In this document: piece after piece, positions 13,863-48,647 of the stretch
Layout of the letters: each line of letters starts with the position of its first letter
How positions within the stretch are numbered: position 1 is the first letter of the stretch
Origin: Myxococcota bacterium
Lineage (GTDB): Bacteria; Myxococcota_A; UBA9160; SZUA-336
Reading direction: 5' to 3'
Assembly: GCA_965247115.1 (NCBI GenBank)
Contig: CBDFGR010000002.1
Span: 1,984,001-2,048,000 of the forward strand
DNA length: 64,000 bases
Made by a program: the position numbers and the translations under genes
The notes under the pieces: model-generated
What the model saw: the letters and a program-made list of their open reading frames with translations, nothing else
What the model was told of the DNA's origin: nothing
Database searches by the model: none

Positions 13863-14948
13863 TCAGTACACGGCGACTGCGACCGCAAACATCAGGATCG
13901 CCAGGCCGAGGACGTAGCGCCAGATCTCCTGCTGGTCATCGTCCGCAACCAGCTCGAACGAGATGCTTCGGTGGGAGCTGACGACGTCGTTCAGAAAGCT
14001 GGTGGCGCTCAGCTCTGCGTTGTCGATGATGAAGGTTCGGCCGCCACTGCGCTCTCCGAGGAATTTCAAGGCGTCGGTATCGAGCCGGGTCCTGATCGTC
14101 TCGAGCTCCTCCTCGAGCGTGTCGTCGTAGTCGAGCCCCTTCTTGTAGTCCAGGAGAACGTCTGACAGGTGTACACCCGTTCGTGCGCCGATTCCGATTG
14201 GATAGACCTTCAAGCCTCTCCGTTGAAGCTCGGACAGCGCCTGATTCAGCCGCTGCGTCTGTTCCGCGTCCGCAGCATAATCCCCGTCTGAGAACAGAAG
14301 CACCAACCGGTCGGTCCGTCTCGTGGGCTTCCAGTCCCGGCTTCCGGCCACGAACCGGTCCTGACTGTCCAGGGACTGATAAACATGCTCGAAGACCGCC
14401 GCCACGTCGGTATCCCAGGGGAAAGCGTCGCCCGTGAGAGTGGTTGGGGGCCGGATCCTCCCGACCTCTCTGAGGAACCTCTCGCTGTTGGACGACAGGT
14501 GGACCTTTCTCAACGCGGTACCACCAAACACGAACAGCCCCACCCGATCACCTTCCCTGAGGATGTCTTCGGCGTACAGGTTGAGGATCTCCCGCACGGC
14601 CAGATCGAGGCGCGAAGGCTTGAGATCCTTGACCCACATGGAGGCCGAGATGTCCAACACCACGGGGACGTCGACGCTCCCCCGTTCAAAACTCGACGCC
14701 CCATAGCTGAAGTACGGCCTTGCAGCTGCGAGAATCGTCATGGTCAGCACTACCAGTGCGAAGAGCCACAGCTTGATTCTGCCGATCAGTGGGTAGGAGG
14801 ACCCGTAGGTCTTCGCGGGCCTCGCGCGCCGCTTGATGGAGTACGCCAGCACGGTGAGAACCAGACCGACCCCGGCTATGGGGAGGAGTGCCAGGTACTC
14901 CGGATTGGCGAAGGTGATGTTGAGCACCGCGGCCCATAGGTCAGACAC
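13863..14948 (-). CDS. Membrane-anchored vWA domain protein (MxaL/BatB-like)
   Basis: N-terminal TM pair, MIDAS DISASM, FSDGD, YPIGIG, C-terminal TM; last gene of the moxR operon. Confidence 0.85.
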   Translation of the reverse strand: MSDLWAAVLNITFANPEYLALLPIAGVGLVLTVLAYSIKRRARPAKTYGSSYPLIGRIKLWLFALVVLTMTILAAARPYFSYGASSFERGSVDVPVVLDISASMWVKDLKPSRLDLAVREILNLYAEDILREGDRVGLFVFGGTALRKVHLSSNSERFLREVGRIRPPTTLTGDAFPWDTDVAAVFEHVYQSLDSQDRFVAGSRDWKPTRRTDRLVLLFSDGDYAADAEQTQRLNQALSELQRRGLKVYPIGIGARTGVHLSDVLLDYKKGLDYDDTLEEELETIRTRLDTDALKFLGERSGGRTFIIDNAELSATSFLNDVVSSHRSISFELVADDDQQEIWRYVLGLAILMFAVAVAVY

Positions 14949-14951
14949 GGT

Positions 14952-15629
14952 CTACCCTCTTCGCCGCCTGACTGGCACACCCTCGCGCTGCATTTCTTGC
15001 AGCTCGGGGGGCTCGATTTCCACGTAGGTTTCCAGGGCTCGTTTAATGGCCGCCGGATCACTTGTCAGGTCGTAGTTCCACGTGTAGTCGAACCGTTCGC
15101 CGGGATCACTTCTGAGTGCGCGCTCGAAGTCCGGATTCACCTTCTCCAGGACCTCGTTGATGATGTCTGCTCTGGCCCGGATCGCCGCCGCGCTGTCGCC
15201 CTCGATCGCTCGGTAGCGGAGCTGGGCGAGCCTGAACTTCGCGACGCCGAGGAGATACGACGCGCGATGGTCATCGACCTTGTCCTGAAGATCAGACACG
15301 ATCGTCTCGTAGTCGCCCGTGAAGTAGGAGAAGGCCGCCTGGTGGAGAAACGAGTCGCTGAACAGGTACGAATCCGCAAGCTCTTGCAGGCCCAGCCTGC
15401 GACTGCGCTGATAGAACGCCGTGATCTCGTCCAGCTCGGCTTGCGCGGCACTCTGGTCGCGATTCCTGACGTGGTAGCTCAACCCCTCTAGATGGGCATA
15501 GAAGTTGCCGAGGCTCGACGCTGGCACAGCAACAACGATCAGGAACCCGATCGCCAACACCAGGCCCACAGCCCAGCGAACGGGGCTCTGTTGCCTGAGG
15601 AAGTTATCGCGAGACGGGGTATTCATCAT
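14952..15629 (-). CDS. Membrane-anchored TPR-like protein (MxaK-like)
   Basis: N-terminal TM; ASYLLGVAKF and FERALRSDP..FDYTWNYDL resemble a TPR/MxaK C-terminal motif; lies between two vWA genes. Confidence 0.6.
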   Translation of the reverse strand: MMNTPSRDNFLRQQSPVRWAVGLVLAIGFLIVVAVPASSLGNFYAHLEGLSYHVRNRDQSAAQAELDEITAFYQRSRRLGLQELADSYLFSDSFLHQAAFSYFTGDYETIVSDLQDKVDDHRASYLLGVAKFRLAQLRYRAIEGDSAAAIRARADIINEVLEKVNPDFERALRSDPGERFDYTWNYDLTSDPAAIKRALETYVEIEPPELQEMQREGVPVRRRRG

Positions 15630-15643
15630 GTCGAGTCCTCGGA

Positions 15644-16774
15644 TTAGGGATCGGTTCCCCAGAACAGCTCGCTGGTCAAGCCGAGCGGGATCACGATCAG
15701 CAGGATCATGCTGCCGACCAGCAGAAACCGCATGAAGATGGGCACCTTCAGCGCGCGATACTTGACCTCGACTCGAACCGCCTCGCGCTCGTCGATAGCC
15801 CGGTAGGCGCTCGCCAGGCTGTGCGGATCGTTGACGTCGAAGTAGTCGCCCCCGTGCTCCCGGACTCGCTCAACCAGCCTTGGTGTATGGCTGTTCGTGG
15901 CGCCGGCAATGCGGAGATTGCTCGTGTTGATGAAGATGATGTAGGGCACGATGTTCCGCTTCTTGAGCTCCTGGAACTGCGCCTCTGGATACCGATCGAT
16001 AGCGGCATCGGTGATGATCAGCACGGCCCGGTTCTGGTTCTCACCGTCCGTTAGCTCTGTCGCATCGTTGTCGAAGTGCCTGAGGATGGCCTCGAGCGGC
16101 CGTATGATATTGGTGTCGCCTTCGGCCGCGATGATCTTGACCTTTTCACGCGGCACCATCATGGCTTTGTCTATGCGCTGGGTCGTGACATACGGTGCGT
16201 CGTACACCTGAAAGTAGTAGAGCTCATCGTCTATCACGAAGTCGTCGACCATGTACGGGTAGTTCGAGAAGAGCCACAGAGACACCCGGTCGTTCTTCCC
16301 CGCCCGCATCTCGAGGAATTCGAGATGCGCGTTCCTGGCAACTTCCGCCTTGGACTTGCCGGTGCCAGGAAACTCCCAGGACATCGAGCCAGACGTGTCG
16401 ACGAGATCGACTCTGATTCTCGACTCGACGTATCCAGACACCTCCTCCGTACTGGTCAAGAAGGGATCCGCGATCGCCACCAGTAGACAGACCAACACCA
16501 CTGCCAGACCCAGCTTCGGTATGGTATTGAGCGCTTTTACCCCTAGTCCGCGCCGGTGCTCGTACGAAACGAAGTGACCGGAGTGGTGGCGGGAGTGCTT
16601 TCGCCGGCGGAGCGCCGTCCAGGCGATCTTGAACAGAAGCAGGCCGACGATCGCTCCGCCGAGCCAGATGGCGAACGCCTCGTCGGCGTACCGCACTTGA
16701 CCGAATTCCGTGTCCAGGAATTCCACCAGTCCCGTCTCGACGAAACGAACAAGCTCTTGCCACGCTACGCTCAT
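15644..16774 (-). CDS. Membrane-anchored vWA domain protein (MxaC/BatA-like)
   Basis: MIDAS DTSGSM, NDRVSLWLFS, IITDA, AYRAIDERE, flanking TMs. Confidence 0.85.
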   Translation of the reverse strand: MSVAWQELVRFVETGLVEFLDTEFGQVRYADEAFAIWLGGAIVGLLLFKIAWTALRRRKHSRHHSGHFVSYEHRRGLGVKALNTIPKLGLAVVLVCLLVAIADPFLTSTEEVSGYVESRIRVDLVDTSGSMSWEFPGTGKSKAEVARNAHLEFLEMRAGKNDRVSLWLFSNYPYMVDDFVIDDELYYFQVYDAPYVTTQRIDKAMMVPREKVKIIAAEGDTNIIRPLEAILRHFDNDATELTDGENQNRAVLIITDAAIDRYPEAQFQELKKRNIVPYIIFINTSNLRIAGATNSHTPRLVERVREHGGDYFDVNDPHSLASAYRAIDEREAVRVEVKYRALKVPIFMRFLLVGSMILLIVIPLGLTSELFWGTDP

Positions 16775-16787
16775 ACGTGATGGCGCT

Positions 16788-17903
16788 CTAGCCGTCGCCC
16801 CCTAGCTGAGCCCCCCTCCGGCGATCAACCCAATCGGCGAGGCTCGTCGACACACGCACAAGTGGGCGAAGCTGCCTGAGCGACCGCTGGAGCCGCCTGG
16901 CCTCCATTTCCGCATCCTCAACCGGAGCCGGCTTCCCTTGCTCCAACCCGCCCTGATACACGACCATCTTCGAGGCCAGCGTCATCAGGGCGTCCTTTCG
17001 CGTTCCGCTCTTGACGCTGCGTTCGATGTGCGCCTTGATGTCCTTGGGAGTATCTCCAGGATTCAGCTCTGGAAGCTCGGCCCGCAGCAGGTCCTTCAAC
17101 GAAATGACCAGACTGCGCTCCAGCGCGAGCCATGCCTGTCCATTCCCTGGCGAAGACTGGTGGTCCATGGCACCGAGTACCTTCAGCTGCCGGGCGAGCT
17201 GCCGCCTCGTCTGGCCGGCCGCGGGCTCCAGATACACCTCGAGCGCCTCGAGGTCATCCTCCCCCTTGAGTGGATCCTGACGGGCTAGCCGGGGCCTCCT
17301 CATCAGTCTGACGAACAGGACGAGCCACACGACCAGCGGCAGCGGTGCGATCGTCCACGCGATCGCTTTCATGATCGTCGCTCTTGTCCTGAAGCTGCCG
17401 AGCTCGACGGTATCTCGAACATCGATCACCGGATCTTCGGTCACAGTAGTCACATAGCTGACATACAGCTCATCGCTGTCGATCAGTTGCGCGTCAGCGT
17501 CCTCAATGGTCTCGCCGAGATCCCGGACCAACCAGAAGAAGCGCACCCTCGGCAGCACGTATGTTCGCTTGGTGGGATTCAGCATTCGAAAGGTGTAGGC
17601 GAAATCCCAGATGTGCTCGTCACCAACCCTTCGCTTCACGACCGCCACGGAGCTGGCATCGAAGGGGTCGACGGAGAGATTCTCCGGCACCATTCGATCC
17701 TCGAGAACGACCAGCTCACGACCCTCGCCAATCAGGTCGGGAAACTTCACCCGGTACACAACGACGAACGGCTCGCTCGACTTCACGACCGTGGGAACCG
17801 GCTTCAAGGTCTCCACCGTCAAGGGCGCTGGTTCCTGGCCGAGAACGTTTCGGGCGAGAAGCAGGAGGATGGCTGCGCCGATTGCGTTGCGCTTCATGGT
17901 CAA
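16788..17903 (-). CDS. Exported single-TM protein (MxaA/BatD-like position)
   Basis: Signal peptide, beta-rich periplasmic part, TM, helical tail; lies between DUF58 and vWA genes. Confidence 0.6.
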   Translation of the reverse strand: MTMKRNAIGAAILLLLARNVLGQEPAPLTVETLKPVPTVVKSSEPFVVVYRVKFPDLIGEGRELVVLEDRMVPENLSVDPFDASSVAVVKRRVGDEHIWDFAYTFRMLNPTKRTYVLPRVRFFWLVRDLGETIEDADAQLIDSDELYVSYVTTVTEDPVIDVRDTVELGSFRTRATIMKAIAWTIAPLPLVVWLVLFVRLMRRPRLARQDPLKGEDDLEALEVYLEPAAGQTRRQLARQLKVLGAMDHQSSPGNGQAWLALERSLVISLKDLLRAELPELNPGDTPKDIKAHIERSVKSGTRKDALMTLASKMVVYQGGLEQGKPAPVEDAEMEARRLQRSLRQLRPLVRVSTSLADWVDRRRGAQLGGDG

Positions 17904-17943
17904 TGTTCCCGGTCTCTGCGGGCGACCTCGGCCGTGCCCGGGC

Positions 17944-18861
17944 TCAGCGACCGGATCTCGCCATCAAGAAGGTGGAGAGCTCCTCGAACCAGTTCGTGGG
18001 CGTCAGCACAACCGAATCGATCCCCGCTCGCCGCTTCAGGGTCGCCATCAGCGCTTCCCGGGACTCCTCGATCTGTCGGCGCACGGCCCCCGCGCGGCGT
18101 GCCGACATCACGACCTCCTCCCCTGTCTCCATGTTGGTGGCCCTCACGTAGCCCAGCTTGCTCCGCACGACATGTTCCTCGGGGTCGTCCAGGATCAGCA
18201 CGATCATATCGTGCTTCGACCCCAGACTGCCAAGCAGGCCGGAGTCGAAGGCGTCTGGCTCGTTCAGGAGATCCACCACATCGGAAATGAACACTATTGA
18301 GTGTCTCATTTTCAGGCGACTGGCCAGAAAGTTCAAAGCCACGGAGAGGTCGGTTGTCCGCTTCGTCGGATACTCTCTCTCGAACTGCACTTTCTCGAAG
18401 ATCCGCTTTGCCATGAAAAAAATGTGCGAGCTGCCCAGCTTGGGCTTCAGGTACAGCTCAACTCGGTCTGAAAACCCGAGCAGTCCGACCGGGTCTTGCA
18501 CGTGTGCCCGCGTCAAGCCGATGGCGCCGATCAGATCGAGCAGCAACAGGGCCTTGTTGGCGTCCTGGAGAATTCTGAACAACGTCGAAGAGGAGAGGTC
18601 GGCGACCAGAATGGTCCGCATCTCCTTCGGTTCCATCCTCTCGATCTTGTAGATCTTGTCCGGGTACGTGCGAAGACTCAGGCTCCAGGAGATGTCCTTG
18701 AGCGGTTGCCCGTCTCTCCACTGATCGACCCCGACAATGTCGTAGCCAGAACCCTTGAAGGCGCTTCGATGCTCACCGAAGGAAAAGCTAGTGGACTTCT
18801 TCTTGGCTTTGGCACCCCGATTGAGCTCGCGGAATCTGGAAAAGACCTCCTCTACTTCCAC
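17944..18861 (-). CDS. DUF58 / vWA-like protein (MxaS-like)
   Basis: GEHRSAFKGSG, ISWSLS, ADLSSS, DPVGLLGFSD, FISD; overlaps the moxR 3' end. Confidence 0.88.
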   Translation of the reverse strand: MEVEEVFSRFRELNRGAKAKKKSTSFSFGEHRSAFKGSGYDIVGVDQWRDGQPLKDISWSLSLRTYPDKIYKIERMEPKEMRTILVADLSSSTLFRILQDANKALLLLDLIGAIGLTRAHVQDPVGLLGFSDRVELYLKPKLGSSHIFFMAKRIFEKVQFEREYPTKRTTDLSVALNFLASRLKMRHSIVFISDVVDLLNEPDAFDSGLLGSLGSKHDMIVLILDDPEEHVVRSKLGYVRATNMETGEEVVMSARRAGAVRRQIEESREALMATLKRRAGIDSVVLTPTNWFEELSTFLMARSGR

Positions 18862-19949
18862 GGAGGGATCTCCATGTCCTTGATGATCTGAGCGAGCACC
18901 TCCTCGCGAGTGACAGAGAACTCCATCCCCTCCTTGAGCACCAGTCGATGCGCCAGCACGTATGGTGCGACGGCCTTGATGTGGTCGGGCGTGACGAGCA
19001 AGTCGCCGTTGAAGAACGCGAAGGTTCGAGCGACCGCTTCAAGATGAAAGTGGACGCGCGGCGAGATGCCGACCCGGATGTACTCCTTGACCGTCCGCGC
19101 CGCTCGACCCTGAGTTCTGTGGGGTCTGGTACTTCGGATCAACCTCACTCTGTACTGATCGGCGTACTCGGATGTGGGGACGTTGTCGAAGATGAACTGC
19201 GCGATGTCCAGCACCTCGTGCAGGTTGGTCAGCTTCTCCACCTTCTTGCCCACGACATTGCGAGCCACGATCTTCGCTTCGTCCGCTTCGTCTTCCGGAT
19301 CGCCCATGTAGATGGCGAGGGTCGTTCGATCCAGCTGCGCCACGGGATTCGGGAATGTTCCCTCCTCCTCGCCGAAGATGTTCTCGGTGCAGATGACCAT
19401 GAAGAAGCGTGGACCCTCGATATCGGCGAAGTCCCCGGACAGGGGGAAGAGCGGAACCATCTTCGTTTCGCCGACACCCAGGTTCCCGTAGTCCGAAGTG
19501 AGCGAGGCAGAGCTCTCCTCCATGCCTTCGAGCACCGCCGCTTTGGTCTTGCCCGTCAACCGATTGTCCTCGTCGATCAGGACGATGTGCGCCATGAGCT
19601 TGCCCGGCTTGAAGTGGATCTGGCGGCTGCCATCCAGCTCCTCGACGATCGTCTCGTAGCCGAGAATGTCCTCGGGCATGTACGTCGGGAGCCCCTGGAT
19701 CCGCTCGAACTTGGCATCGATCGCCATCGCACAGGCCGTTACCAGATCGGTCTTTCCGGTTCCGGTGGGACCCTTGAACAACACGTGGGGTTGGCGCAGC
19801 GCCTTGGTCTGCCGGAGCTTGTCGGTGTAGGGGAGCAGCGTGAAGAACGCCCACGAGAGAGTTCTCGCCGCCTCATCCAGACCGAAGAGCCACTTGGTGG
19901 ACTCGTTCTGGAACTTCTGAACGACCTCAAAGGCCCGGTCGCGATCCAT
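18852..19949 (-). CDS. moxR: MoxR-family AAA+ ATPase
   Basis: Walker A GPTGTGKT, RIQG...PEDILG, Walker B LIDEDNR, EGTFPNPVAQLDR, SPR, VLAHRL. Confidence 0.93.
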   Translation of the reverse strand: MDRDRAFEVVQKFQNESTKWLFGLDEAARTLSWAFFTLLPYTDKLRQTKALRQPHVLFKGPTGTGKTDLVTACAMAIDAKFERIQGLPTYMPEDILGYETIVEELDGSRQIHFKPGKLMAHIVLIDEDNRLTGKTKAAVLEGMEESSASLTSDYGNLGVGETKMVPLFPLSGDFADIEGPRFFMVICTENIFGEEEGTFPNPVAQLDRTTLAIYMGDPEDEADEAKIVARNVVGKKVEKLTNLHEVLDIAQFIFDNVPTSEYADQYRVRLIRSTRPHRTQGRAARTVKEYIRVGISPRVHFHLEAVARTFAFFNGDLLVTPDHIKAVAPYVLAHRLVLKEGMEFSVTREEVLAQIIKDMEIPPWK

Positions 19950-20029
19950 GGCGTCCTTATTTTTCCCCGGCATCAGACAGTCCGTCCAGCTGTAGCGGTT
20001 ACACCGGACTACCGCCAACTCGCGGTAAC

Positions 20030-20086
20030 TTGACCCTCAGGCGGTCTTGCTGCCATTCTCGGGGCGAAAAGCGGAGCAAATGCTCC
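20030..20086 (+). promoter_or_regulatory. Putative sigma70-type promoter plus palindromic operator for the PQQ array
   Basis: TTGACC-N18-CATTCT with TG extension, then GGAGCA-AA-TGCTCC; repeated at 38165-38215. Confidence 0.65.
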
Positions 20087-20160
20087 AGAGGCGTGCCCCT
20101 TCGAGCACGGATCTGATTCTCCCCGGACCGGGCGGGCTTGGACCGGGAGGAGGCGCGACG

Positions 20161-22041: not shown

Positions 22042-22056
22042 CGAGGAGGCACGCTG

Positions 22057-23961: not shown

Positions 23962-25827
23962 ATGATGATGAGGTGGCTTGGTGTGATGTCCGTCGCCGTC
24001 ACGGTGTTGCTACCGACGGCGGCCTCGGCGCAGGCGACGGATGCTCGGTGGCTCTTCCTGTTCGAGGAACAATGCGCCACCTGCCATGGAACGACCAGTA
24101 TCGTTCCCAACGCGGTCAGTCGCGAGGCGATTCGCTCGTTCTCCCCGGAGCGGGTGCTCGAGGCGCTGACGACCGGTGCGATGGTGCCCAACGCGAGCGG
24201 GCTCTCGGAGGAGGAGAAGCGCGGCTTGGCCGAGTACCTGACGGGTCGCCCGTTCGGAAACGCGGCGGACCGCTCGGCCGAGGCGATGCCGAACCGTTGC
24301 GCCGACGATATGCCGATGGGCGATCCGTCGGTCGGCCCGCAGTGGAACGGCATGAGCCCCGATCCCACGACGAGCGCCCGCTTTCAGCCGGCCGCTGCGG
24401 CAGGGCTGACGGCCGAGCAGCTGCCGCGGCTGCGGCGCAAGTGGGCGTTCGGCTTTCCGGACGGCAGCTCGCTCCGGGGCCAGCCCACGGTCGCCGGGGG
24501 TCGCGTGTTCGTGGGCAGCGACAACGGGATGGTGTACGCGCTCGACGCGAAGAGCGGCTGCGTGCACTGGTCCTTCGAGGTCGGCGAAGCTGTGATTACG
24601 GGGATCAGCGTGGGGACCGTGCCCGGGTCCGGAGACCGCTACGCCGCGTACTTCGGGGATTTCCGGGCGAACGTCCACGCGGTGGACGCCGAGACGGGCG
24701 AAGGGCTCTGGACGGTGTCTGTGGACGAGCACGAGTTTGCGAAGGTCAGCGGCTCGCTGGTGCTCGATCCCCAGGGGGGACGCCTGTACGTGCCGGTAGG
24801 CTCGTGGGAGGAAGTCTCGGGCATCGTCAACCTCCTGTACGAGTGCTGCACTTCCCAGGGCAGCGTGGTGGCCCTGGAGGCCGCAACCGGGCGGCAAATC
24901 TGGAAGAGCTACACGATTCCCGAACGTCCCCGGCCGGTCAGGAAGAACTCCGCCGGCACGCAGCTGTTCGGCCCATCGGGGGCCGGGGTCTGGGCGGCGC
25001 CCACGCTCGACTACCGGCGCCGGGTCCTCTACGTCGGCACGGCGAACGGCTACATCAATGTGCCGGACTCGGGGTCCAGTGACGCCGTCATCGCCTTCGA
25101 CCTCGATACGGGCAAGCGACGCTGGTCGACCCAGCTCTTGGCCGGCGATCTGAACTGCGGGGGCGGTGGATCGACCGACGCCGACAAGAGGATCAACTGC
25201 CCCGGCTTCATCCCGACCACGAACGACGATGTGTCCGGGTCGCCCGTCCTGCACACGCTGCCGGATGGGCGCCAGATTCTGATCGCGGGGCAGGAGAGCG
25301 GCAGGATCACAGCGTTGGATCCGGACGACAACGGCGCCGTGCTGTGGGTCGCGCAAGCAGGGGACGTGCTGAGCCCAGGAGGCGGCGGCATGGGCGCCGC
25401 CGCGGATGGAGAGCTCTACTACAGGGCCCTCGTGCTCCCCGACAGGACCGGTGGGATGGCCGCGCTCCGATCCGCGACGGGCGAGCGGGTCTGGTACGCC
25501 ACCCACCCGAAGCCCACGAGCTGCTCCGACCCGGAGGCGGACTGGTGCAGCTCGGGACAGTATGGAGCGGCGACGGTGATCCCCGGCGCCGTCTTCGCAG
25601 GGGCCCGGGACGGCACCCTGCGCGCGTACTCGACGGGGAACGGCGAGGTCCTGTGGGAGTACGACACGATGCAGGAGTACGAGACGGTGAACGGCGTGCG
25701 TGCGAAGGGGGGCTCGATCGGTGGCCACGGGCCGGCGATCGTCGGCGGCATGCTGTTCATGGGCTCCGGGTACAACATCATCACGAGCACCCCGGGCAAC
25801 GTGCTGCTCGCGTTTGGCGTGGAATAG
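23962..25827 (+). CDS. PVADH-like quinohaemoprotein, copy 3
   Basis: CATCH plus the same motifs. Confidence 0.92.
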   Translation: MMMRWLGVMSVAVTVLLPTAASAQATDARWLFLFEEQCATCHGTTSIVPNAVSREAIRSFSPERVLEALTTGAMVPNASGLSEEEKRGLAEYLTGRPFGNAADRSAEAMPNRCADDMPMGDPSVGPQWNGMSPDPTTSARFQPAAAAGLTAEQLPRLRRKWAFGFPDGSSLRGQPTVAGGRVFVGSDNGMVYALDAKSGCVHWSFEVGEAVITGISVGTVPGSGDRYAAYFGDFRANVHAVDAETGEGLWTVSVDEHEFAKVSGSLVLDPQGGRLYVPVGSWEEVSGIVNLLYECCTSQGSVVALEAATGRQIWKSYTIPERPRPVRKNSAGTQLFGPSGAGVWAAPTLDYRRRVLYVGTANGYINVPDSGSSDAVIAFDLDTGKRRWSTQLLAGDLNCGGGGSTDADKRINCPGFIPTTNDDVSGSPVLHTLPDGRQILIAGQESGRITALDPDDNGAVLWVAQAGDVLSPGGGGMGAAADGELYYRALVLPDRTGGMAALRSATGERVWYATHPKPTSCSDPEADWCSSGQYGAATVIPGAVFAGARDGTLRAYSTGNGEVLWEYDTMQEYETVNGVRAKGGSIGGHGPAIVGGMLFMGSGYNIITSTPGNVLLAFGVE

Positions 25828-35407: not shown

Positions 35408-36379
35408 ATGGAGGTCATTCGCGTTCAGGAGATCATGGCGGCTCACTCGGAGCATGCGCGGCTAGCGCATGACCCCGCCTACAAGGACGGCTCTGCGTAC
35501 GTCATCGATCGGATCTGCCCGATCGCGGAGGCCGCCATCCCGCTCACGGATAGCGGCTTCACTCACTCGGATGCCGTGTACGACGTGATCAGCGTGAGCC
35601 GGGGCAGCTTCTTCCGTCTCGGACTGCACCAGGAGCGCTTCTCGAAGGCCTTGGCCCTGACCCGGATGCGAAACCCACTCTCGTCCGAGGAGGAGGCAGA
35701 GAACCTGAACCGTCTCGTGGCTCTCACGGGTCTCAAGGATGCGTACGTCTTCTGGACGGTGACCCGGGGCAGCACCATGGGAGGACGCGGCGACTTCCTC
35801 AATCCCGAGAGGTTCCAGAATCGCCTTTACGCTTACGTCACGCCCTACGTCTTCATCTGTGACGATGAGCAGCGCGCCCGTGGCATCGACCTCGTCGTGA
35901 GCCGGGACCGTATCCGGATTCCGTCACGGGCAGTCGATCCCCGAGCCAAGAACTTCCACTGGCTCGATCTGATGATGTCCCTGTTCGAGGCGCGGGAGCG
36001 CGGCGCCGAGTGGTCGGTGCTCCCCGACGAGTCCGGATATCTCACAGAGGCGCCGGGCACGAACATCTTCGCGGTCAAGGATGGCGTAGTGCTCACGCCC
36101 GACTCGGGCTGTCTCGAAGGGATCACGCGGCAGACCGTGATCGATCTCTGCAAGGACCTGGACGTGCCCTGCAAGCTGACGAAGGTGCACGTGGACGAGC
36201 TGCGCGGTGCGGACGAGGCGTTTCTCAGCTCGACAGCCGGCGGAGTCATGCCCGTGAACCGGGTGGACGACAACCTCCTCGGCGGGAAGGACGGCCCGGG
36301 CGAGCTTACGACGCGACTCCACAACGCGTACTGGGAGCGCCGCTGGGAGGGCTGGGACGCAACACCCGTCCGCTACTAG
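35408..36379 (+). CDS. Class IV PLP aminotransferase (branched-chain / (R)-amine transaminase-like)
   Basis: DSGFTHSDAVYD, KNFHWLD, EAPGTNIF, LEGITR, STAGG. Confidence 0.92.
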   Translation: MEVIRVQEIMAAHSEHARLAHDPAYKDGSAYVIDRICPIAEAAIPLTDSGFTHSDAVYDVISVSRGSFFRLGLHQERFSKALALTRMRNPLSSEEEAENLNRLVALTGLKDAYVFWTVTRGSTMGGRGDFLNPERFQNRLYAYVTPYVFICDDEQRARGIDLVVSRDRIRIPSRAVDPRAKNFHWLDLMMSLFEARERGAEWSVLPDESGYLTEAPGTNIFAVKDGVVLTPDSGCLEGITRQTVIDLCKDLDVPCKLTKVHVDELRGADEAFLSSTAGGVMPVNRVDDNLLGGKDGPGELTTRLHNAYWERRWEGWDATPVRY

Positions 36380-36416: not shown

Positions 36417-38168
36417 GTGTGGTTCGCCCTCCCGTCGTTCGCCACAGCTGCGATCGGGGTTCCCCTCCTCATCCACATGCCGCGCTTCTACAGCGATGAG
36501 GTAGGGGTTCCCCTCGCCTATCTGGCGGTGGCGGTAGCGCTCGCGCGCGGCCTCGATGCGGTCACCGACCCGCTGATGGGCTGGGTCACCGACCGTACCC
36601 GCTCCCGCTGGGGCCGCCGGAAGCCCTGGATAGCGGTGGGCGCCCCACTGACGGGGCTCGCCTTCGCTGCCCTCTTCAGCCCGCCTGCGCGCCTCTCTCT
36701 GACGGAGGCATCCGTCTGGTTCGCAGCCTTCTTCGGCCTCTACTACCTCTTCCACACCATCTGCGTGATCCCGCACGTGGCGCTGGGTGCCGAGCTGTCC
36801 CTCGATTACCACGAGCGCACGCGCCTCTTCGGTGTCCAGACTTACTTCGTCGTGGCCGGCACGCTGGTGACCTCCTACATGCCGCAGCTGCTACAGGGAC
36901 CCCTGGACCTGGACGCTCGTCCGGCGTATCGAGCGATCGGGTTCTCCTATGCCGTGCTTCTGCCGCTGCTGTTCCTCCCGCTGCTGTACTACGTGCGGGA
37001 GCGACCGGAGTTCGCCGCGCGAGCGCCCAATCCGCTCGTCCCCGGCATCCGTCGCGCGCTCCGGAACCGGCCCTTTCGGCAGCTGTTCATCATGACGCTG
37101 CTCTTCGGGACCTCGGACATGATCCCCAGCATCATGATGCCGTATCACACGATCTACGTGCTCCTGCTCGACGACTGGGAGCTGTGGCTCAGCATGTTCC
37201 TGCTCGCCTACTTCGGCGTCGCCTTCGGGACCGTCCCCGTCTGGGTCTGGGTGTCGACCCGAATCGGAAAGCAGCGCGCCCTCGTCGCCTCCGGGGCGAT
37301 CGGCGCCGCGTGGATGGTCACGTTCTTCTACCTTGCGGCCCCCGGTCGTGAGTGGTTCGTTCTCATCATGTGGGGAGTTCTGGGCCTTCAGTTCGCCGCG
37401 TGGACCCTGCTCTACCCCGCGCTGCTCGCTGATGTCATCGACTACGACGAGCTGCGCACCGGAAAGAGACGCGAAGCGCAGTACGCGAGCATCTGGACGG
37501 CGGTGCGCAAGTTCGTCGCGATTCCCGCCGCTTCCGTTCCGCTCGTGCTCCTCGGCGCAGCCGGGTACGTACCGAATCAACCTCAGACGCCCGAGGTGGT
37601 GCTCTGGATCCGCATCCTGATCGCTGGGTTTCCGGGCTTCCTCATGGCCGCGGGAGCTGCCGTGATCCTGTTCTACCCGATCACCGCCTCCGTCCATCGC
37701 CAGATCCGGGAGGGCCTCGCTCTTCACGAGCGGGGTCAGACCGCGGTTGACCCGCTGTCCCATGCGACCCTGCCCCCACCGGTAGCCGGCGTTGCCGAGG
37801 ACGACGCTTGGACGCTCGACAACTTCAGCACCGGTGAGCTGAGGCGCCTTGTACGCGCTGGACCCACGCGCATCGTCGTAGACGCATCTTTGTGTACCGC
37901 AGGGGCAATCCTGGCACTCGTCGCCTCTGCTGGGTTGGCGTACTGGAACCTTCCGCAAGCGCATGCGCGACCCGGGCTGGCGAGCGTAGCCGGGATCACC
38001 GCAGCCGGACTGGCCCTGGCCGCGACGGCCTTCCACGTGTTACGAGTGAGAGCCGCGCAACGCCTGCGAGCGTCTCCGCTCACAGCCAGCATCGTGAGAG
38101 CTCACCTCGAGAAGCAGAACACTCCGAGAGGGTCTCGCCCAGAAGTGGGGAGAGGCGCGCACGCTTGA
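36417..38168 (+). CDS. MFS transporter, GPH (MelB-like) family, with C-terminal extension; start uncertain
   Basis: DAVTDPLMGWVTDRTRSRWGRRKPW, ALGAELS...ERT, ADVIDYDELRTGKRRE. Confidence 0.88.
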   Translation: MWFALPSFATAAIGVPLLIHMPRFYSDEVGVPLAYLAVAVALARGLDAVTDPLMGWVTDRTRSRWGRRKPWIAVGAPLTGLAFAALFSPPARLSLTEASVWFAAFFGLYYLFHTICVIPHVALGAELSLDYHERTRLFGVQTYFVVAGTLVTSYMPQLLQGPLDLDARPAYRAIGFSYAVLLPLLFLPLLYYVRERPEFAARAPNPLVPGIRRALRNRPFRQLFIMTLLFGTSDMIPSIMMPYHTIYVLLLDDWELWLSMFLLAYFGVAFGTVPVWVWVSTRIGKQRALVASGAIGAAWMVTFFYLAAPGREWFVLIMWGVLGLQFAAWTLLYPALLADVIDYDELRTGKRREAQYASIWTAVRKFVAIPAASVPLVLLGAAGYVPNQPQTPEVVLWIRILIAGFPGFLMAAGAAVILFYPITASVHRQIREGLALHERGQTAVDPLSHATLPPPVAGVAEDDAWTLDNFSTGELRRLVRAGPTRIVVDASLCTAGAILALVASAGLAYWNLPQAHARPGLASVAGITAAGLALAATAFHVLRVRAAQRLRASPLTASIVRAHLEKQNTPRGSRPEVGRGAHA

Positions 38169-38215
38169 CCCTCAGGCGCTCTTGCTGCCATTCTGCGTAA
38201 GATGAGCAAATGCTC
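38165..38215 (+). promoter_or_regulatory. Second copy of the putative promoter/operator, upstream of quinohaemoprotein copy 9
   Basis: TTGACCCTCAGGCGCTCTTGCTGCCATTCT (one mismatch to 20030-20059) and GAGCAAATGCTC. Confidence 0.65.
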
Positions 38216-38227
38216 GGAGGCACGCTG

Positions 38228-40084
38228 ATGAAGTGGCTTGTTTTGGCGTCTGTTGCCGTCGCGTTGTTGCTGCCGAGGGCGAGCTGGGCGCAGGTGACGG
38301 ATTCTCGCTGGATCGTCCTGTTCGAGAAGGAGTGCGCGGTCTGCCATGGAACGACCAGTACCGTTCCCAACGCGGTCAGTCGCGAAGCCCTGCGGGCGTT
38401 CTCTCCGGAGCGGGTGCTCAAGGCGCTGACGACCGGCGCGATGGCTCCCAATGCGAGCGCGCTCTCGGATGAGGAGAAGCGCGGGATCGCAGTGTTCCTG
38501 ACCGGTCGCCCGTTCGGAAACGCGGCGGACCGTTCGGCTGCAGCGATGCCGAACCGCTGTGCCAGTGGCATGCCGATGGGGGATCCCGCCGTCGGGCCGC
38601 AGTGGAACGGCATGAGTCCCGATGCCACGACCAGCGCTCGCTTTCAGCCGACCGCCGCAGCGGGGCTGACGGTCGAGCAGGTGCCACGGCTCCGGCGCAA
38701 GTGGGCGTTCGGCTTTCCAGACGGCAGCTCGGTCCGGGGCCAGCCGACGGTGGTTGGGGGTCGGGTCTTCGTGGGCAGCGACAACGGGATGATATACGCG
38801 CTCGACGCGAAGACCGGCTGTGTGCACTGGTCCTTTGAGGGTGGAGAAGCCGTAACGACGGCAGTCAGCGTGGGAACCGTGGCCGGGTCAGAGGACCGTT
38901 ATGCCGCGTATTTCGGGGATTTCCAGGCGAATGTCCACGCCGTGGACGCCGAGACGGGCGAGCAGCTGTGGACGGTGCGCGTCGACGACCATCCGATGGC
39001 GAAGATCACGGGTTCGCCCGTGCTCGATACCCAGGGGGGACGCCTTTATGTGTCGGTGGCCTCGTGGGAGGAGGCTGCCGGCTCCAACCTCTCGTACGAG
39101 TGCTGCACGTCGCAAGGCAGTGTGGTAGCTCTGGACACCGGGACCGGCCGGCAAATCTGGAAGACCTACACAATCCCCGAACGTCCCAGACCATTCAGGA
39201 AGAACTCTGCCGGTACGCAGCTGTACGGGCCGTCGGGTGCCGGGATCTGGGCGGCGCCCACGCTCGACTACAGGCGCCGGGTCGTCTACGTCGGTACGGC
39301 CAATGGCTACGTCGACGTGCCGGACTCGGGGTCCAGTGACGCCATCATTGCCTTCGACCTCGACACCGGCAAGAGGCGGTGGTCGACCCAGCTCCTGGCC
39401 GACGACTTGAACTGCGGGGGAGGTGGAACGACCGATGCCGAGCGCAGGATCAACTGCCCCGGCCACGTACCGAATCCCAATGACGATGTGTCCGGGTCTC
39501 CCGTCCTGTACACGCTGCCGAACGGGCGCCAGATTCTGCTCGCGGGGCAAGAGAGCGGCAGGACCACGGCCCTGAATCCCGACGACAACGGCGCTGTGCT
39601 GTGGGTCGCGCAGGCCGGCGACATGCTGTGGCCACGTGGCTCCGGTCTGGGCGCCGCGGCGGATGGGGAGCTCTACTACAGACCCCTTGGGTTGTCCGAG
39701 CAGACGGGTGCGATGGCCGCGCTCCGGCCCGCGACGGGGGAGCGGGTCTGGTACACGACGCACGCGAAGCCGACGAACTGCTCCGACCCTGAGGCGGACT
39801 GGTGCAGCTCGGGACTGTTCGGGGCGGCGACGGTCATCCCCGGCGCCGTGTTCGCCGGGGCGAGGGACGGCACGCTGCGCGCGTACTCGACGAGTGACGG
39901 CGAGGTTCTGTGGGAGTACAACACCATGCAAGAGTACGAGACGGTGAACGGCGTCCGGGCCAAGGGGGGCTCGATCGGTGGCCACGGCCCCGCGATCGTC
40001 GGGGGTATGCTGTTCATGGGCTCTGGCTACAACATCATTTCGAGTTCTCCGGGCAACGTGTTGCTCGCGTTTGACGTGGAGTAG
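38228..40084 (+). CDS. PVADH-like quinohaemoprotein, copy 9
   Basis: CAVCH plus the same motifs. Confidence 0.92.
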   Translation: MKWLVLASVAVALLLPRASWAQVTDSRWIVLFEKECAVCHGTTSTVPNAVSREALRAFSPERVLKALTTGAMAPNASALSDEEKRGIAVFLTGRPFGNAADRSAAAMPNRCASGMPMGDPAVGPQWNGMSPDATTSARFQPTAAAGLTVEQVPRLRRKWAFGFPDGSSVRGQPTVVGGRVFVGSDNGMIYALDAKTGCVHWSFEGGEAVTTAVSVGTVAGSEDRYAAYFGDFQANVHAVDAETGEQLWTVRVDDHPMAKITGSPVLDTQGGRLYVSVASWEEAAGSNLSYECCTSQGSVVALDTGTGRQIWKTYTIPERPRPFRKNSAGTQLYGPSGAGIWAAPTLDYRRRVVYVGTANGYVDVPDSGSSDAIIAFDLDTGKRRWSTQLLADDLNCGGGGTTDAERRINCPGHVPNPNDDVSGSPVLYTLPNGRQILLAGQESGRTTALNPDDNGAVLWVAQAGDMLWPRGSGLGAAADGELYYRPLGLSEQTGAMAALRPATGERVWYTTHAKPTNCSDPEADWCSSGLFGAATVIPGAVFAGARDGTLRAYSTSDGEVLWEYNTMQEYETVNGVRAKGGSIGGHGPAIVGGMLFMGSGYNIISSSPGNVLLAFDVE

Positions 40085-40086
40085 CG

Positions 40087-40548
40087 ATGTCCGGCCTGCA
40101 GAACACGGTTTCTCTCCTGCTCACGGTCGCTGTTGCGCTCGGCATGGCCTTGACGGCGAGTGGGGCTGATTCGGAGCGCAAGGAAAACATCTGGCTGGGC
40201 GTTTTCACGAACCCACAGGCGCAGCGCGGCCACACGGCCTATCTCGCCACGTGCGCCACTTGCCACACCGAGACCCTGACGGGACGCCCTCCCGCTCCGG
40301 CTCTTCGCGGTAGCGGGTTCGTCTTGAGGTGGGACGGCAAGACGGTCAGGGATTTTTACAGCCGCATCCGCACCACGATGCCTACCGATGCGCCCGGTAG
40401 TCTCAGTCGCCAGGATACGCTCGACATCGTGGCGTATCTCTTCCAGGTAAACGGTTTTCCTGCGGGAGTCGATGAGCTTGCGGGCAGCGCAGTGGAGCTA
40501 CAGAAGACCAAGATCACACAGCACGCGGAGGGCAGCGATGGACCCTAA
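40087..40548 (+). CDS. Periplasmic monohaem cytochrome c, likely electron acceptor for PQQ dehydrogenases
   Basis: Signal peptide, W.GVFT..QAQRG, CATCH, distal TTMP. Confidence 0.9.
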   Translation: MSGLQNTVSLLLTVAVALGMALTASGADSERKENIWLGVFTNPQAQRGHTAYLATCATCHTETLTGRPPAPALRGSGFVLRWDGKTVRDFYSRIRTTMPTDAPGSLSRQDTLDIVAYLFQVNGFPAGVDELAGSAVELQKTKITQHAEGSDGP

Positions 40549-42538: not shown

Positions 42539-42572
42539 GGCGCGCAGACTACAAGGCACGAGGAGGGGCGCG

Positions 42573-44579: not shown

Positions 44580-44611
44580 GGTGAATGATCACGCAGAACG
44601 AGGAGGATGTG

Positions 44612-46609
44612 ATGGACGCTGGCAAGACACGAACTCGACGGATCCTGATTGCGGGGCTCTGCTTGGGCCTCCTGGTAGTACAGGCGAATAAGGTCCTTGC
44701 CCAGCAGTCGGCGCTCCACGGTGAGTGGCGCAGCTATTCGAGCGACAAGGCAAATACAAAGTACACACCGCTCGAGCAGATCGATCGTGACAACGTCAGC
44801 GAGCTTCGCGTGCTCTGGCGCCGGCCAGGTGTGGATCCCAAGCTCACCGAGACGTTTCCCGACCTCGACCCATCCAACGATTTCCGCGCGACGCCGCTCA
44901 TGATTGGCGGCGTGCTCTACGCATCGAACGCTGTCGGGTTGGTGGAAGCCTTCGATCCCGCGACGGGGGAGACGCTCTGGATCCAGGAGCCGGTGTATGA
45001 GGGATTTCGGGGCGTGGCCGGGCGCAGCATGCGGGGGGTCGCTCAATGGAGCAGCGGTTCGAGCCAGCGCATCTTCGCGGTGCGAGGCAACGATCTCGTG
45101 TCGATGAGCGCGGAGACGGGCAGCCTGGTTCGGGGCTTCGGCGACGGCGGCAAGGTGGACCTGAAGAGAGTCGGCCCCGGCCCCAGTCCGGCATTCGGGG
45201 ACGGCGGCACAGCTGGCCCCATCGTCGTGGGCGACGTGGTCATCGTCGGCGGCGGGGGCCGCGGCGATTTCCCTGTGGTGGAAGAGGGAACTCCGGAGGA
45301 TATTCGGGCCTATGACGTGCAGACCGGCCGTCCGCGCTGGACCTTCCATGTAAAACCGCAACCGGGGGAGTTCGGATTCGAGACGTGGGAAGACGGCTCC
45401 TGGGAGATCGGCGGGGCCATGGGCGCGTGGCCACCCCTCACCGTGGATGAGGAGCTCGGCTACATCTATGTGCCCCTGTCGTCTCCCATGCACAGCTTCT
45501 ACGGGGGCCACCGGCCCGGACAGAATCTCTTCGCCAACAGCCTCGTGTGCCTCGACGCCAGGACCGGCGAGCGGGTGTGGCACCACCAGCTCGTGCATCA
45601 CGACCTGTGGGAGTACGACATGGCGTCGGCGCCGGTGCTCGGCGACATCACCGTCCGTGGGAAGCTCATCAAGGCGGTGATGCAGCTCACGAAGCACGGC
45701 TTCCTGTTCGTGTTCGACCGCGTGACGGGGGAGCCCGTGTGGCCGATTGAAGAGCGGCAGGTGCCGGCGTCCACCGCGCCAGGGGAGAGGGCCTGGCCGA
45801 CACAGCCGTTCCCGACCAAGCCGGCCCCGTTCGATCGACAAGGGGTGAGCGTCGACGATCTGATTGACTTTACACCGGAGCTGCGTGCCGAGGCGCTCGA
45901 GATCGTCAAGTCGTACGTGCTCGGCCCGCTCTTCACGCCGCCGTCGGTGGCGGCCGAGGGGCATACCCTGGGTACGATCACCCTGCCGGGCGCAGCGGGT
46001 GGCGCGAACTGGAACGGTGGGGCCTTCGACCCCGAGACGGGGGTCTTCTACGTCCCCTCTCATACGCACCCGTGGCGGAACGATCTCGTCAGGCCGCCCG
46101 CGCTGATCGAGGCGACGACGCCGTACATGCATGGGCCAGCGGTGCTGCTCACCTCGGGTGACTCGTGTTGTGAGCAGTTCGAGATCTATGGCCCGGAAGG
46201 CCTGCCACTCGTCAAGCCGCCGTACGGGCGCATCACCGCGATCGATCTGAATACGGGCGAGCACGTGTGGATGGCTCCCAATGGAGATGGGCCACGCAAT
46301 CACCCGCGCTTGCGACACCTGAACCTGCCCCCCCTGGGGCAGGAGGGCCGGGCGGCTCCTCTTCTCACGAAGACGCTGCTCTTCATCGGCGAGGGCGATC
46401 CGATCATTGTTGGTACGCCTCGAGGCGGTGGGGGAAACAAGTTTCGCGCCTTCGACAAGGCCACGGGCGACGTGCTGTGGGAGACCGCGTTCGAGGCGGG
46501 GACCACCGGAGCGCCGATGAGCTACCTGCACAACGGCAAGCAGTACATCGTGGTGGCCATCGGGGGCGAAGATCACGCCGCCGAGTGGGTCGCGCTGGGT
46601 CTTCCCTGA
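44612..46609 (+). CDS. PQQ glucose/quinate dehydrogenase-like protein, copy C
   Basis: Same motifs but HHDLWEYD; start placed after GAGGAGG. Confidence 0.92.
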   Translation: MDAGKTRTRRILIAGLCLGLLVVQANKVLAQQSALHGEWRSYSSDKANTKYTPLEQIDRDNVSELRVLWRRPGVDPKLTETFPDLDPSNDFRATPLMIGGVLYASNAVGLVEAFDPATGETLWIQEPVYEGFRGVAGRSMRGVAQWSSGSSQRIFAVRGNDLVSMSAETGSLVRGFGDGGKVDLKRVGPGPSPAFGDGGTAGPIVVGDVVIVGGGGRGDFPVVEEGTPEDIRAYDVQTGRPRWTFHVKPQPGEFGFETWEDGSWEIGGAMGAWPPLTVDEELGYIYVPLSSPMHSFYGGHRPGQNLFANSLVCLDARTGERVWHHQLVHHDLWEYDMASAPVLGDITVRGKLIKAVMQLTKHGFLFVFDRVTGEPVWPIEERQVPASTAPGERAWPTQPFPTKPAPFDRQGVSVDDLIDFTPELRAEALEIVKSYVLGPLFTPPSVAAEGHTLGTITLPGAAGGANWNGGAFDPETGVFYVPSHTHPWRNDLVRPPALIEATTPYMHGPAVLLTSGDSCCEQFEIYGPEGLPLVKPPYGRITAIDLNTGEHVWMAPNGDGPRNHPRLRHLNLPPLGQEGRAAPLLTKTLLFIGEGDPIIVGTPRGGGGNKFRAFDKATGDVLWETAFEAGTTGAPMSYLHNGKQYIVVAIGGEDHAAEWVALGLP

Positions 46610-46634
46610 GACGAAAAGAACGAGGAGGGGTGCG

Positions 46635-48647
46635 ATGGACGGACCAACCGCTGCGGAGAAACGAATTCGACGGATCCTGCTTGGGGGGCTCTGCTTGTGC
46701 CTCCTCGGAGTGCAGGCGGACAAGCTCCATGCGGAGCAGTCGGCCTTCCACGGTGAGTGGCGCAGCTACGCGAGCGACAAGGCAAACACGAAGTACACGC
46801 CGCTGGCGCAGATCGATCGTGACAACGTCGGCAAGCTTCGCGTTCTCTGGCGCCGGCCTGCTCTCGATCCAGGGCTCAGCGAGACGTTTCCTGACCTGAA
46901 CCCATCGGACGCTCTCCAGGCGACGCCGCTCATGCTTGGCGGCGTCCTCTACACATCGAACAGCGTCGGGTTGGTGGAAGCACTCGATCCCGGAACCGGC
47001 GAGACGCTTTGGGTGCAAGAGCCGCTCCATGAGGGATTTCGGGGCGTGGCAGGGCGCAGCACGCGGGGGGTTGCCCACTGGAGCAGCGATTCGAGCCAGC
47101 GAATCTTCTCGGTGCGAGGCGACTACCTCGTGTCGATGAGCGCGGAGACGGGAAGCTTGGTTCGAGGCTTTGGCGATGGCGGAAAGGTGAACCTGAAGAG
47201 GGACGGCCCCCCTGAGCCGTTTCCCGCCGGCGGGACATCCGGCCCCATCGTGGTGGCCGACGTGGTCATCGTCGGCGGCGGCCGCGCCGGCAGCGATTTT
47301 CCGGTGGTGAAGGAGGGAATTCCGGCGGAGGATATCCGGGCCTATGACGTGCGGACCGGCCGTCTGCGCTGGACCTTCCACGTGAAGCCGCGCCCGGGGG
47401 AATTCGGCTTCGAGACATGGGAGGACGACTCCTGGAAGATCGGCGGCGCCATCGGCGCATGGCCACCTCTCACGGTTGATGAGGAGCTGGGTTACGTCTA
47501 TCTGCCGCTGTCCTCGCCCATGCACAGCTTCTACGGCGGCCACCGGCCGGGACAGACTCTCTTTGCCAACAGCCTCGTCTGCGTCGACGGCCGGACCGGC
47601 GAGCGCGTGTGGCACTACCAGTTCGTGCATCACGACCTGTGGGACTACGACCCGGCGTCGGCTCCGGTGCTCGGCGACATCACCGTCGACGGGAAGCCCA
47701 TCAAGGCGGTGATGCAGCTCACCAAGCAGGGCTTCATGTTCGTGTTCGACCGCGTGACGGGGGAGCCGGTGTGGCCGATCGAGGAGCGGCCTGTAGCGGC
47801 GTCCACGACGCCGGGGGAGAGGGCGTGGCCGACACAGCCCTTCCCCACCAAGCCGGCGCCGTTCGACCGTCAGGGCGTTACCGTCGACGATCTGATCGAT
47901 TTCACGCCGGAGCTGCGCGCCGAGGCGCTCGAGATCGCTAAGCAGTACGTCCTCGGACCGCTGTTCACGCCGCCCTCGGTGGCGGCTCCGGGACATACCC
48001 AGGGCACGCTCACCCTTCCCGGCGCGGCTGGTGGCGCGAACTGGAATGGTGGGGCGTTCGACCCCGAGACGGGAATCTTCTACGTCCCCTCCCACACGCA
48101 CCCCTGGGTGAACGATCTCGTCAGGCCCCCGCCGTTGCTCGAGGCGACGACGCCATACATGCACGGCCCGCAGGAGGCGGGCCCGCTGACGTCGGTCAGC
48201 GACTGCTGTGCGCAGTACGAGATCGCTGGCCCGGACGGCCTGCCGCTCGTCAAGCCGCCCTATGGGCGCATCACGGCAATCGACATGAACACCGGCGAGC
48301 ACGTGTGGATGACCCCCAACGGAGATGGGCCACGCAATCACCCGCGCTTGCGGCACCTGAACCTTCCTCCCCTGGGGCAGCAAGGCCGGGCCTCTCCTCT
48401 TCTCACGAAGACACTGCTCTTCATCGGTGAGGGCGACCCGAGCATCGTGGCGACCCCGAAGGGCGGTGGGGGAAACAAGTTCCGCGCCTACGACAAGGCC
48501 ACGGGCGACGTCCTGTGGGAAACCGCGCTGGCGGCGGGCACCACCGGAGCGCCGATGAGTTATCTCTGGAACGGCAAGCAGTACATCGTGGTGGCCATCG
48601 GGGGCGTCGATCACGCCGCCGAGTGGGTGGCGCTGGGTCTCCCCTGA
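46635..48647 (+). CDS. PQQ glucose/quinate dehydrogenase-like protein, copy D
   Basis: Same motifs; HHDLWDYD. Confidence 0.92.
   Translation: MDGPTAAEKRIRRILLGGLCLCLLGVQADKLHAEQSAFHGEWRSYASDKANTKYTPLAQIDRDNVGKLRVLWRRPALDPGLSETFPDLNPSDALQATPLMLGGVLYTSNSVGLVEALDPGTGETLWVQEPLHEGFRGVAGRSTRGVAHWSSDSSQRIFSVRGDYLVSMSAETGSLVRGFGDGGKVNLKRDGPPEPFPAGGTSGPIVVADVVIVGGGRAGSDFPVVKEGIPAEDIRAYDVRTGRLRWTFHVKPRPGEFGFETWEDDSWKIGGAIGAWPPLTVDEELGYVYLPLSSPMHSFYGGHRPGQTLFANSLVCVDGRTGERVWHYQFVHHDLWDYDPASAPVLGDITVDGKPIKAVMQLTKQGFMFVFDRVTGEPVWPIEERPVAASTTPGERAWPTQPFPTKPAPFDRQGVTVDDLIDFTPELRAEALEIAKQYVLGPLFTPPSVAAPGHTQGTLTLPGAAGGANWNGGAFDPETGIFYVPSHTHPWVNDLVRPPPLLEATTPYMHGPQEAGPLTSVSDCCAQYEIAGPDGLPLVKPPYGRITAIDMNTGEHVWMTPNGDGPRNHPRLRHLNLPPLGQQGRASPLLTKTLLFIGEGDPSIVATPKGGGGNKFRAYDKATGDVLWETALAAGTTGAPMSYLWNGKQYIVVAIGGVDHAAEWVALGLP

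Follow-up and report, generated by a model that had tools for sequence, protein, structure and literature searches.

A six-gene MoxR/vWA cassette with the layout of mxaRSACKL, divergent from an array of PQQ dehydrogenase genes in a Myxococcota genome, and its possible role in metal loading

The subject of this work is a cassette of six genes in the genome of a Myxococcota bacterium (GTDB lineage Bacteria; Myxococcota_A; UBA9160; SZUA-336). It was studied within a stretch of 64,000 nucleotides (assembly GCA_965247115.1, contig CBDFGR010000002.1, positions 1,984,001 to 2,048,000 of the forward strand); this whole stretch is called the window below, and positions are counted from its first letter. 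According to the list of open reading frames (ORFs) and to scans with Pfam and NCBIfam models, the cassette spans 13863-19973 on the minus strand and encodes a MoxR ATPase, a DUF58 protein, a protein with one transmembrane segment (TM), a von Willebrand factor A (vWA) protein, a tetratricopeptide repeat (TPR)-like protein and a second vWA protein. As an earlier note on this DNA had stated, the operon is divergent from nine genes for a cytochrome c joined to a pyrroloquinoline quinone (PQQ) propeller, here termed haem-propeller genes, and four glucose dehydrogenase-like (GDH-like) genes. The gap of about 210 bp given in the note exists but measures 187 bp between the ATGs at 19973 and 20161, and its statement that mxaF, xoxF and mxaI are missing holds for the entire window. 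The genes are as follows:

18852..19973, minus strand: MoxR AAA+ ATPase (AAA_3 and AAA_lid_2), 373 aa, no TM, Walker A GTGKT, Walker B DEDNR
17944..18861, minus strand: DUF58 protein (MxaS slot) with a DxSxS motif, no TM
16788..17894, minus strand: exported protein with one mid-chain TM (MxaA slot); nearest named clusters BatD and DUF4381
15644..16774, minus strand: first vWA protein (vWA1; MxaC or BatA slot), two N-terminal TMs and one C-terminal TM
14952..15629, minus strand: membrane-anchored TPR-like helical protein, 225 aa, MxaK homologue
13863..14948, minus strand: second vWA protein (vWA2; MxaL slot), topology as in vWA1, DxSxS motif
19974..20160: divergent intergenic region, 187 bp, before the first plus-strand ATG at 20161
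20161-22041, 22057-23949, 23962-25827, 25840-27735, plus strand: first four of eight tandem cytochrome c and PQQ-propeller genes
27751-29613, 29626-31518, 31531-33438, 33482-35356, plus strand: last four of these eight genes
35408..36379, plus strand: class IV aminotransferase, inside the array
36417..38168, plus strand: GPH/MFS symporter, inside the array
38210..40084, plus strand: ninth cytochrome c and PQQ-propeller gene
40087..40548, plus strand: small exported mono-haem cytochrome c
40472-42538, 42489-44579, 44585-46609, 46635-48647, plus strand: ORFs of four exported GDH-like PQQ propellers

The start of the MoxR gene was set to the ATG at 19973, where the homologues begin. The Walker motifs and the metal ion-dependent adhesion site (MIDAS) motifs are intact, and DTSGS of vWA1 is kept in 77 of 78 homologues. 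Mutual identity is 78-87% among the nine haem-propeller genes and 81-85% among the four GDH-like genes; the small mono-haem cytochrome c (40087..40548) is a likely electron acceptor for the GDH-like enzymes. In four of four runs from four studies the junction between cassette and array was bridged by one contig each, covering 19758-20169 or more, and is therefore not an assembly artefact. No sigma-70-like promoter was found in 13300-22200, divergent gap included, and no Rfam match within the window. Two RNA-library runs of one study contained short contigs over cassette and array; such contigs, with no silent control, cannot show transcription.

Order and domain composition had been compared in the earlier note with mxaRSACKL, and they match the real mxa clusters one for one, TM topology included. 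Seven genuine mxa clusters and four operons of Bat type served as references. By hydropathy, genes 1 to 6 have zero, zero, one mid-chain, three, one N-terminal and three TMs; among the references MxaA has one in mid-chain, MxaC three and MxaK one at the N-terminus, and two were called in MxaL. Gene 5 matches MxaK (hhalign P=93.4, E=2.5e-7, 86 columns), which is modest since the match is of TPR type, and it gave no match to the TPR proteins of the four Bat-type operons sampled. Its structure model is all-helical and TPR-like, and Foldseek returned weak TPR matches alone, none at E<=0.001. In a quick maximum-likelihood tree of 51 rows, with SH-aLRT support only and a long-branch warning, the MoxR falls into a long-branch clade of its own (support 99), apart from the MxaR (100) and Bat-type (95) clades, the deeper branching order being unresolved; this clade takes in Vicinamibacterales and Patescibacteria-type sequences. 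In this tree, of the kind that the earlier note had proposed, the protein stands outside the Bat clade and outside the MxaR clade as well. A further MoxR/vWA-PQQ neighbourhood was seen on the Paracoccus alcaliphilus plasmid p429813 (L195, 115200-123794), where a Bat-type MoxR operon directly precedes genes for a cytochrome c and a XoxF-like dehydrogenase.

Orthologous loci were collected as the best 80 of 93 relatives, nearly all of them Acidobacteriota, two loci being copies within one genome. The order of the six genes is kept in 74 of the 80, and the other six run off contig edges. Clustering of the neighbouring genes identified a TonB-dependent receptor and pqqBCDE as upstream neighbours. 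Genes for PQQ supply accompany the cassette in 71 of the 80 loci (receptor only in 58, pqqBCDE only in 10, both in three, neither in nine) and in 65 of the 68 with at least 9 kb of upstream sequence (52, 10, three and three, respectively). Every pqqB, pqqC, pqqD and pqqE gene tested scores above its NCBIfam cut-off. For the receptor, the best NCBIfam model is PqqU (NF041535) with 284-296 bits (284-322 with this genome's own copy counted in), the next model giving 130-147 and the cut-off of 1200 not being reached; the best match in the PDB is PqqU of E. coli (6v81 alignment, E 5e-69). All 61 loci with a detected receptor carry F/R/R at the signature positions Y99(F/W), R304 and R365 published in PMC12124388. 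All 61 receptors also have Glu at the position of K274, a variant which PMC12124388 models with PQQ-bound metal. Of 41 genomes positive for the PqqU-like receptor, 37 gave one match only, so that its adjacency to the cassette is not a by-product of many copies. In three Acidobacteria loci (L029, L031, L034) pqqBCDE adjoins a receptor with the PqqU signature; in PMC12124388 such synteny was rare, and no PQQ synthesis genes were found in its 17 Acidobacteria PqqU producers. Genomes with PqqU are tabulated in the supplements to that paper, which may be relevant to the linkage described here. No mxaFJGI-type cluster was detected in the window or among the neighbours of the 80 loci. Other conserved neighbours are a 126-aa protein (50 loci), a 718-aa protein (36) and an HpaB-like gene (21). 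The 718-aa protein is exported, has a carboxypeptidase-regulatory domain and CxxCH, and is encoded upstream of the PqqU-like receptor at L071:2552-4708 and in 35 other loci; small exported proteins of 126 and 185 aa accompany it.

Within its own phylum the cassette stands isolated. This MoxR clade was absent from 60 relatives of the genome, where the best full-length matches reached about 38%, and a search for vWA1 in 300 further members of the phylum gave no match (0/300). Had this phylum been Acidobacteriota, an even sample of it would be expected to contain matches, since 27 of 201 Vicinamibacteria match; the 16S sequence, judged by eye, looks deltaproteobacterial. The GC content is 60% in the cassette and 67% in the array. 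Named relatives of the MoxR with 77-84% identity carry Vicinamibacteria or Acidobacteria titles, one being just 'uncultured bacterium', and the GDH-like genes reach up to 65% identity to Vicinamibacteria versus 48% at most to the genome's own class. These comparisons make it likely that the cassette was gained horizontally; probably it was acquired, with the GDH-like family, from a Vicinamibacterales-like donor, and the enzymes were then multiplied by duplication. By a rough estimate the chance that one insertion adjoins a PQQ-propeller gene is about 1% (28 sites with two junctions each; about 4,700 genes, estimated), a figure to be read together with the alternative that cassette and PQQ gene arrived jointly. 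The region C2:2141485-2141692, about 1 kb from the gene of an alcohol dehydrogenase (ADH)-type quinohaemoprotein, was considered as a second insertion by a PQQ gene and not counted, as it adjoins a PPOX-like paralogue of the window gene 13359-13844; it holds a remnant of the last vWA gene, frameshifted and 67-80% identical, probably from an old duplication of the 3' flank of the cassette.

A third lineage came from a metagenome scan which yielded 45 loci. Among the five distant ones, L171, L172, L176 and L178 were too short to judge, leaving L173, a contig of 44% GC with all six genes in order, a MoxR of 47% identity and genes for TrpRS, RNase J and an L,D-transpeptidase. Past one ORF of 95 aa, the next long ORF downstream of the cassette encodes a PQQ-dehydrogenase-like protein of 505 aa (L173:16806-18323), whose best model, 'acido-empty-quinoprotein', scores below cut-off. 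The contig appears to be Patescibacteria-like, because its MoxR clusters in the tree with sequences labelled Yanofskybacteria and because most members of the ESM cluster closest to gene 5 carry that name. A protein similar to the PQQ-dehydrogenase-like product is itself named from Yanofskybacteria (P0446). No further Patescibacteria locus was obtained in the metagenome scan with vWA1 or in the viral scan.

The array is the largest PQQ array of the genome, in which 40 PQQ-propeller ORFs were counted; 17 intact haem-propeller genes (eight outside the window) and nine intact GDH-like genes (five outside) belong to the two families. A haem-propeller model with a predicted local distance difference test score of 89 has the PQQ-ADH propeller fold, with 1kv9 (quinohaemoprotein ADH) and 6zcw (PedH) as top structure matches (Foldseek E 4e-25). 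All 17 copies carry CxxCH (17 of 17), and a conserved Met was also noted. Glu and Asn of the haem-propeller proteins align with metal-ligand positions of a XoxF-like protein; the alignment left the Asp position unassigned. All 17 copies and two outside homologues (L206, L102) have N-D-D where most relatives have D-x-D, a site which would correspond to the catalytic or metal Asp position. Lys replaces Arg before ITG in the aligned window copies and in L206. N-D-D, with this Lys, may mark an altered active site common to one sub-clade. The PVA dehydrogenase and lupanine hydroxylase type may be near kin of the haem-propeller enzymes. The GDH-like proteins retain the motif HHDLW-[DE]-YD. A complex prediction of vWA1 (106-343) with the fourth GDH-like product (35-670) scored 0.00, the controls were not folded, and the result carries no weight in either direction.

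The genome, 98% complete, yielded no pqqC or pqqE above cut-off; a candidate for PQQ synthesis was rejected, the best pqqE match scoring as NirJ2/AhbD-like. It encodes one PqqU-like receptor (C2:2172121-2174220) with the F/R/R signature, near a GDH-like copy, and has a separate ordinary Bat operon as well as a second generic MoxR operon. Another TonB-dependent receptor, at 2863-5415 of the window on the minus strand and 8 kb from the cassette, lies outside the PqqU-like matches of the genome. Genes for the heavy and light chains of a methylamine/aromatic amine dehydrogenase are found at 56894-58734 (plus strand), followed by a redoxin-domain ORF at 59405-60349, and represent a second kind of quinoprotein (tryptophan tryptophylquinone) near the PQQ array.

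The distribution of cassette and enzymes was followed in 201 Vicinamibacteria, 26 of which contain the cassette vWA1 and one a solo vWA1 paralogue only. The PqqU-like receptor is present in 25 of the 26 cassette genomes versus 16 of the 175 others, in which 16 the signature was not checked. At least 87 first-look GDH-like candidates, a rough proxy for the number of propeller genes, were obtained in 24 of the 26 versus four of the 120 others listed, 55 genomes without a match being unlisted. The search for the haem-propeller family scored just five to six candidates in each genome. An additional vWA1 paralogue standing by itself (L114-L133, 50-55% identity) occurs in most of the Vicinamibacteria with the cassette, among exported proteins, with an exported family of about 325 aa and DUF6152 as neighbours. 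A PQQ dehydrogenase gene occurs within the 20-kb stretch around this paralogue in about half of 20 genomes (cluster in 10 loci) and directly adjoins it in L129; the paralogue could be a second client adaptor.

The cassette faces 13 PQQ-type genes here and adjoins genes for PQQ uptake, PQQ synthesis or PQQ enzymes in two other lineages, and a role in the maturation of PQQ enzymes other than methanol dehydrogenase is therefore likely. The reading towards which we lean, by analogy with the methylotroph system, is that the six proteins form a trans-membrane machine which helps periplasmic PQQ enzymes to acquire their metal ion. Deletion of any one of mxaR, S, A, C, K and L gives a Ca-poor methanol dehydrogenase (MDH) that is rescued by Ca2+, and PQQ loading of MDH is done by MxaJ (PMC12276312). 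The cytoplasmic MoxR/DUF58 ATPase would drive the two vWA domains with their MIDAS and the TPR and BatD-like partners; under a positive-inside reading of the TM pattern, all these partner domains are predicted to face the periplasm. Anchored in the membrane, they may serve metal loading of periplasmic PQQ enzymes in the way that MxaRSACKL serves that of methanol dehydrogenase, while the PqqU-like receptor of the genome probably takes up the PQQ. The neighbourhoods suggest PQQ enzymes as clients, probably a broad repertoire and not the window array alone. Metal loading as the step concerned would follow from the Ca2+ defect of the mxa deletions (PMC12276312). As a tentative and rather doubtful extension, the cassette may be a second, non-methylotroph machine of MxaRSACKL type: a mobile metal-loading chaperone for libraries of tens of PQQ enzymes whose metal sites are unusual (the N-D-D haem-propellers and the GDH-like enzymes), fed by a metal-co-importing PqqU and moved with its clients among Patescibacteria, marine Acidobacteria and the unrelated phylum studied here.

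Several results weigh against the metal-loading reading. A haem-propeller gene was found in none of the 80 orthologous loci, which led us to reject conserved synteny with this family, and any PQQ enzyme in the flanks of only four; the linkage to PQQ enzymes in other genomes which the earlier note looked for is thus replaced by linkage to the PqqU-type importer and pqqBCDE. The GDH-like family occurs in 100 of the 175 Vicinamibacteria without the cassette (100 of 126 GDH-like-positive genomes) and the haem-propeller family in 27 (27 of 49 positive). A genome of the same genus (G002, 95% complete) has haem-propeller genes at 83-84% identity and a PqqU-like receptor, and no cassette. With both families so widespread without it, and with 13 further copies of the enzyme genes elsewhere in the genome, the dedicated role that the note had inferred is not supported, nor is a need of these enzymes for the cassette. 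Clade confounds the co-occurrence counts; the Vicinamibacterales loci share their descent and amount to roughly one event, which reduces the independent events to three, one of them a single contig. Patescibacteria are not known to have an outer membrane or respiration, so that a working PQQ enzyme there would be odd. The profile comparison of the six proteins, which the note had proposed, is divided: gene 5 is an MxaK homologue, but four genes are closer to Bat-type proteins (MoxR 332 versus 198 for MxaR, DUF58 125 versus 50 for Mxa, vWA1 99 with BatA versus 86 with MxaC, vWA2 116 with BatA, 61 with BatB and 56 with MxaL), and gene 3, which has BatD/DUF4381-like features, gave no match to seven MxaA proteins (hhalign P=0.3).

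These scores, together with gene 3, would suit a divergent Bat-like envelope operon without any PQQ role, which stands near pqqU or pqq genes by inherited synteny in one Acidobacteria lineage and came here along with PQQ neighbours or by chance. To our knowledge no client of Bat-like operons has been described. Such an operon would also agree with the inherited non-PQQ neighbours conserved alongside it (the 126-aa, 718-aa and HpaB-like proteins) and with the enzymes present without the cassette in many genomes. We nevertheless regard this explanation as improbable in view of three kinds of PQQ neighbour in three lineages, the replacement of the importer by pqqBCDE in 10 loci, the vWA-TPR-vWA order with no BatD at the end, the MxaK homology and the separate ordinary Bat operon of the genome. 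It is also rather unlikely that the cassette serves PQQ physiology by a step other than metal loading, either the hand-over of PQQ or the folding, export or proof-reading of many beta-propeller proteins: the MIDAS motifs are retained, and the sole tested system of this layout shows the Ca2+ defect and leaves PQQ to MxaJ (PMC12276312), even though importer and synthesis genes, not enzymes, are the conserved neighbours, very large propeller repertoires go with the cassette, and the PQQ-type neighbour on L173 fits best to the 'acido-empty-quinoprotein' model. The real client might also be a non-PQQ neighbour in the Acidobacteria loci, for instance the exported CxxCH protein of 718 aa, whose gene precedes the receptor gene in the same direction in 36 of the 80 loci; we consider this highly unlikely, as no such gene was called in the remaining 44 loci, none adjoins the cassette in the window, and L173 shows no corresponding ORF.

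If the cassette does load metal into PQQ enzymes, it bears on a problem which according to PMC12276312 is unexplained, namely how a cytoplasmic MoxR ATPase and membrane vWA partners put Ca2+ into a periplasmic enzyme. Linked in three lineages to genes for PQQ uptake, PQQ synthesis or PQQ enzymes, it offers a second testable system, with candidate clients that can be cloned from the window. The cassette might also account for the ability of marine Acidobacteria to maintain PQQ-propeller repertoires of very large size, and it draws attention to the PQQ-type gene adjoining its Patescibacteria copy. A search by title, covering little of the subscription literature, found no publication on this cassette; new are its probable transfer to another phylum, next to a PQQ array, the alternation of pqqBCDE and PqqU and the Patescibacteria-like locus.

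Compared with known systems, the four GDH-like enzymes are without the membrane anchor of Gcd. The haem-propeller enzymes share the propeller fold, CxxCH and the conserved Met with the quinohaemoprotein and PQQ alcohol dehydrogenases (1kv9, 1kb0, PedH 6zcw), with Glu and Asn aligning at metal-ligand positions, whereas their haem domain is N-terminal and the identity to the solved structures is 16-18%. The receptor next to the cassette has about 35% identity to PqqU (YncD) and stays under the NCBIfam cut-off. With MxaRSACKL the cassette has in common the order MoxR-DUF58-TM protein-vWA-TPR-vWA, similar sizes, the TM pattern of each gene and the tie to PQQ genes; it differs in its MoxR, which shares 25-26% identity with MxaR and stands apart from the MxaR clade, and in having no mxaF, mxaJ, mxaG, mxaI or mxaD beside it. 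With the Bat-type operon MoxR-DUF58-DUF4381-BatA-BatB(TPR)-BatD it shares the best scores of MoxR, DUF58 and both vWA proteins and the BatD/DUF4381-like gene 3. Bat operons, however, are ordered vWA-vWA-TPR and then BatD, whereas here vWA-TPR-vWA is followed by unrelated genes, with no terminal BatD. As judged from layout, profile scores, the matches of genes 5 and 3 and the MoxR tree, the cassette resembles MxaRSACKL in layout and yet is neither a member of MxaRSACKL nor an ordinary Bat operon.

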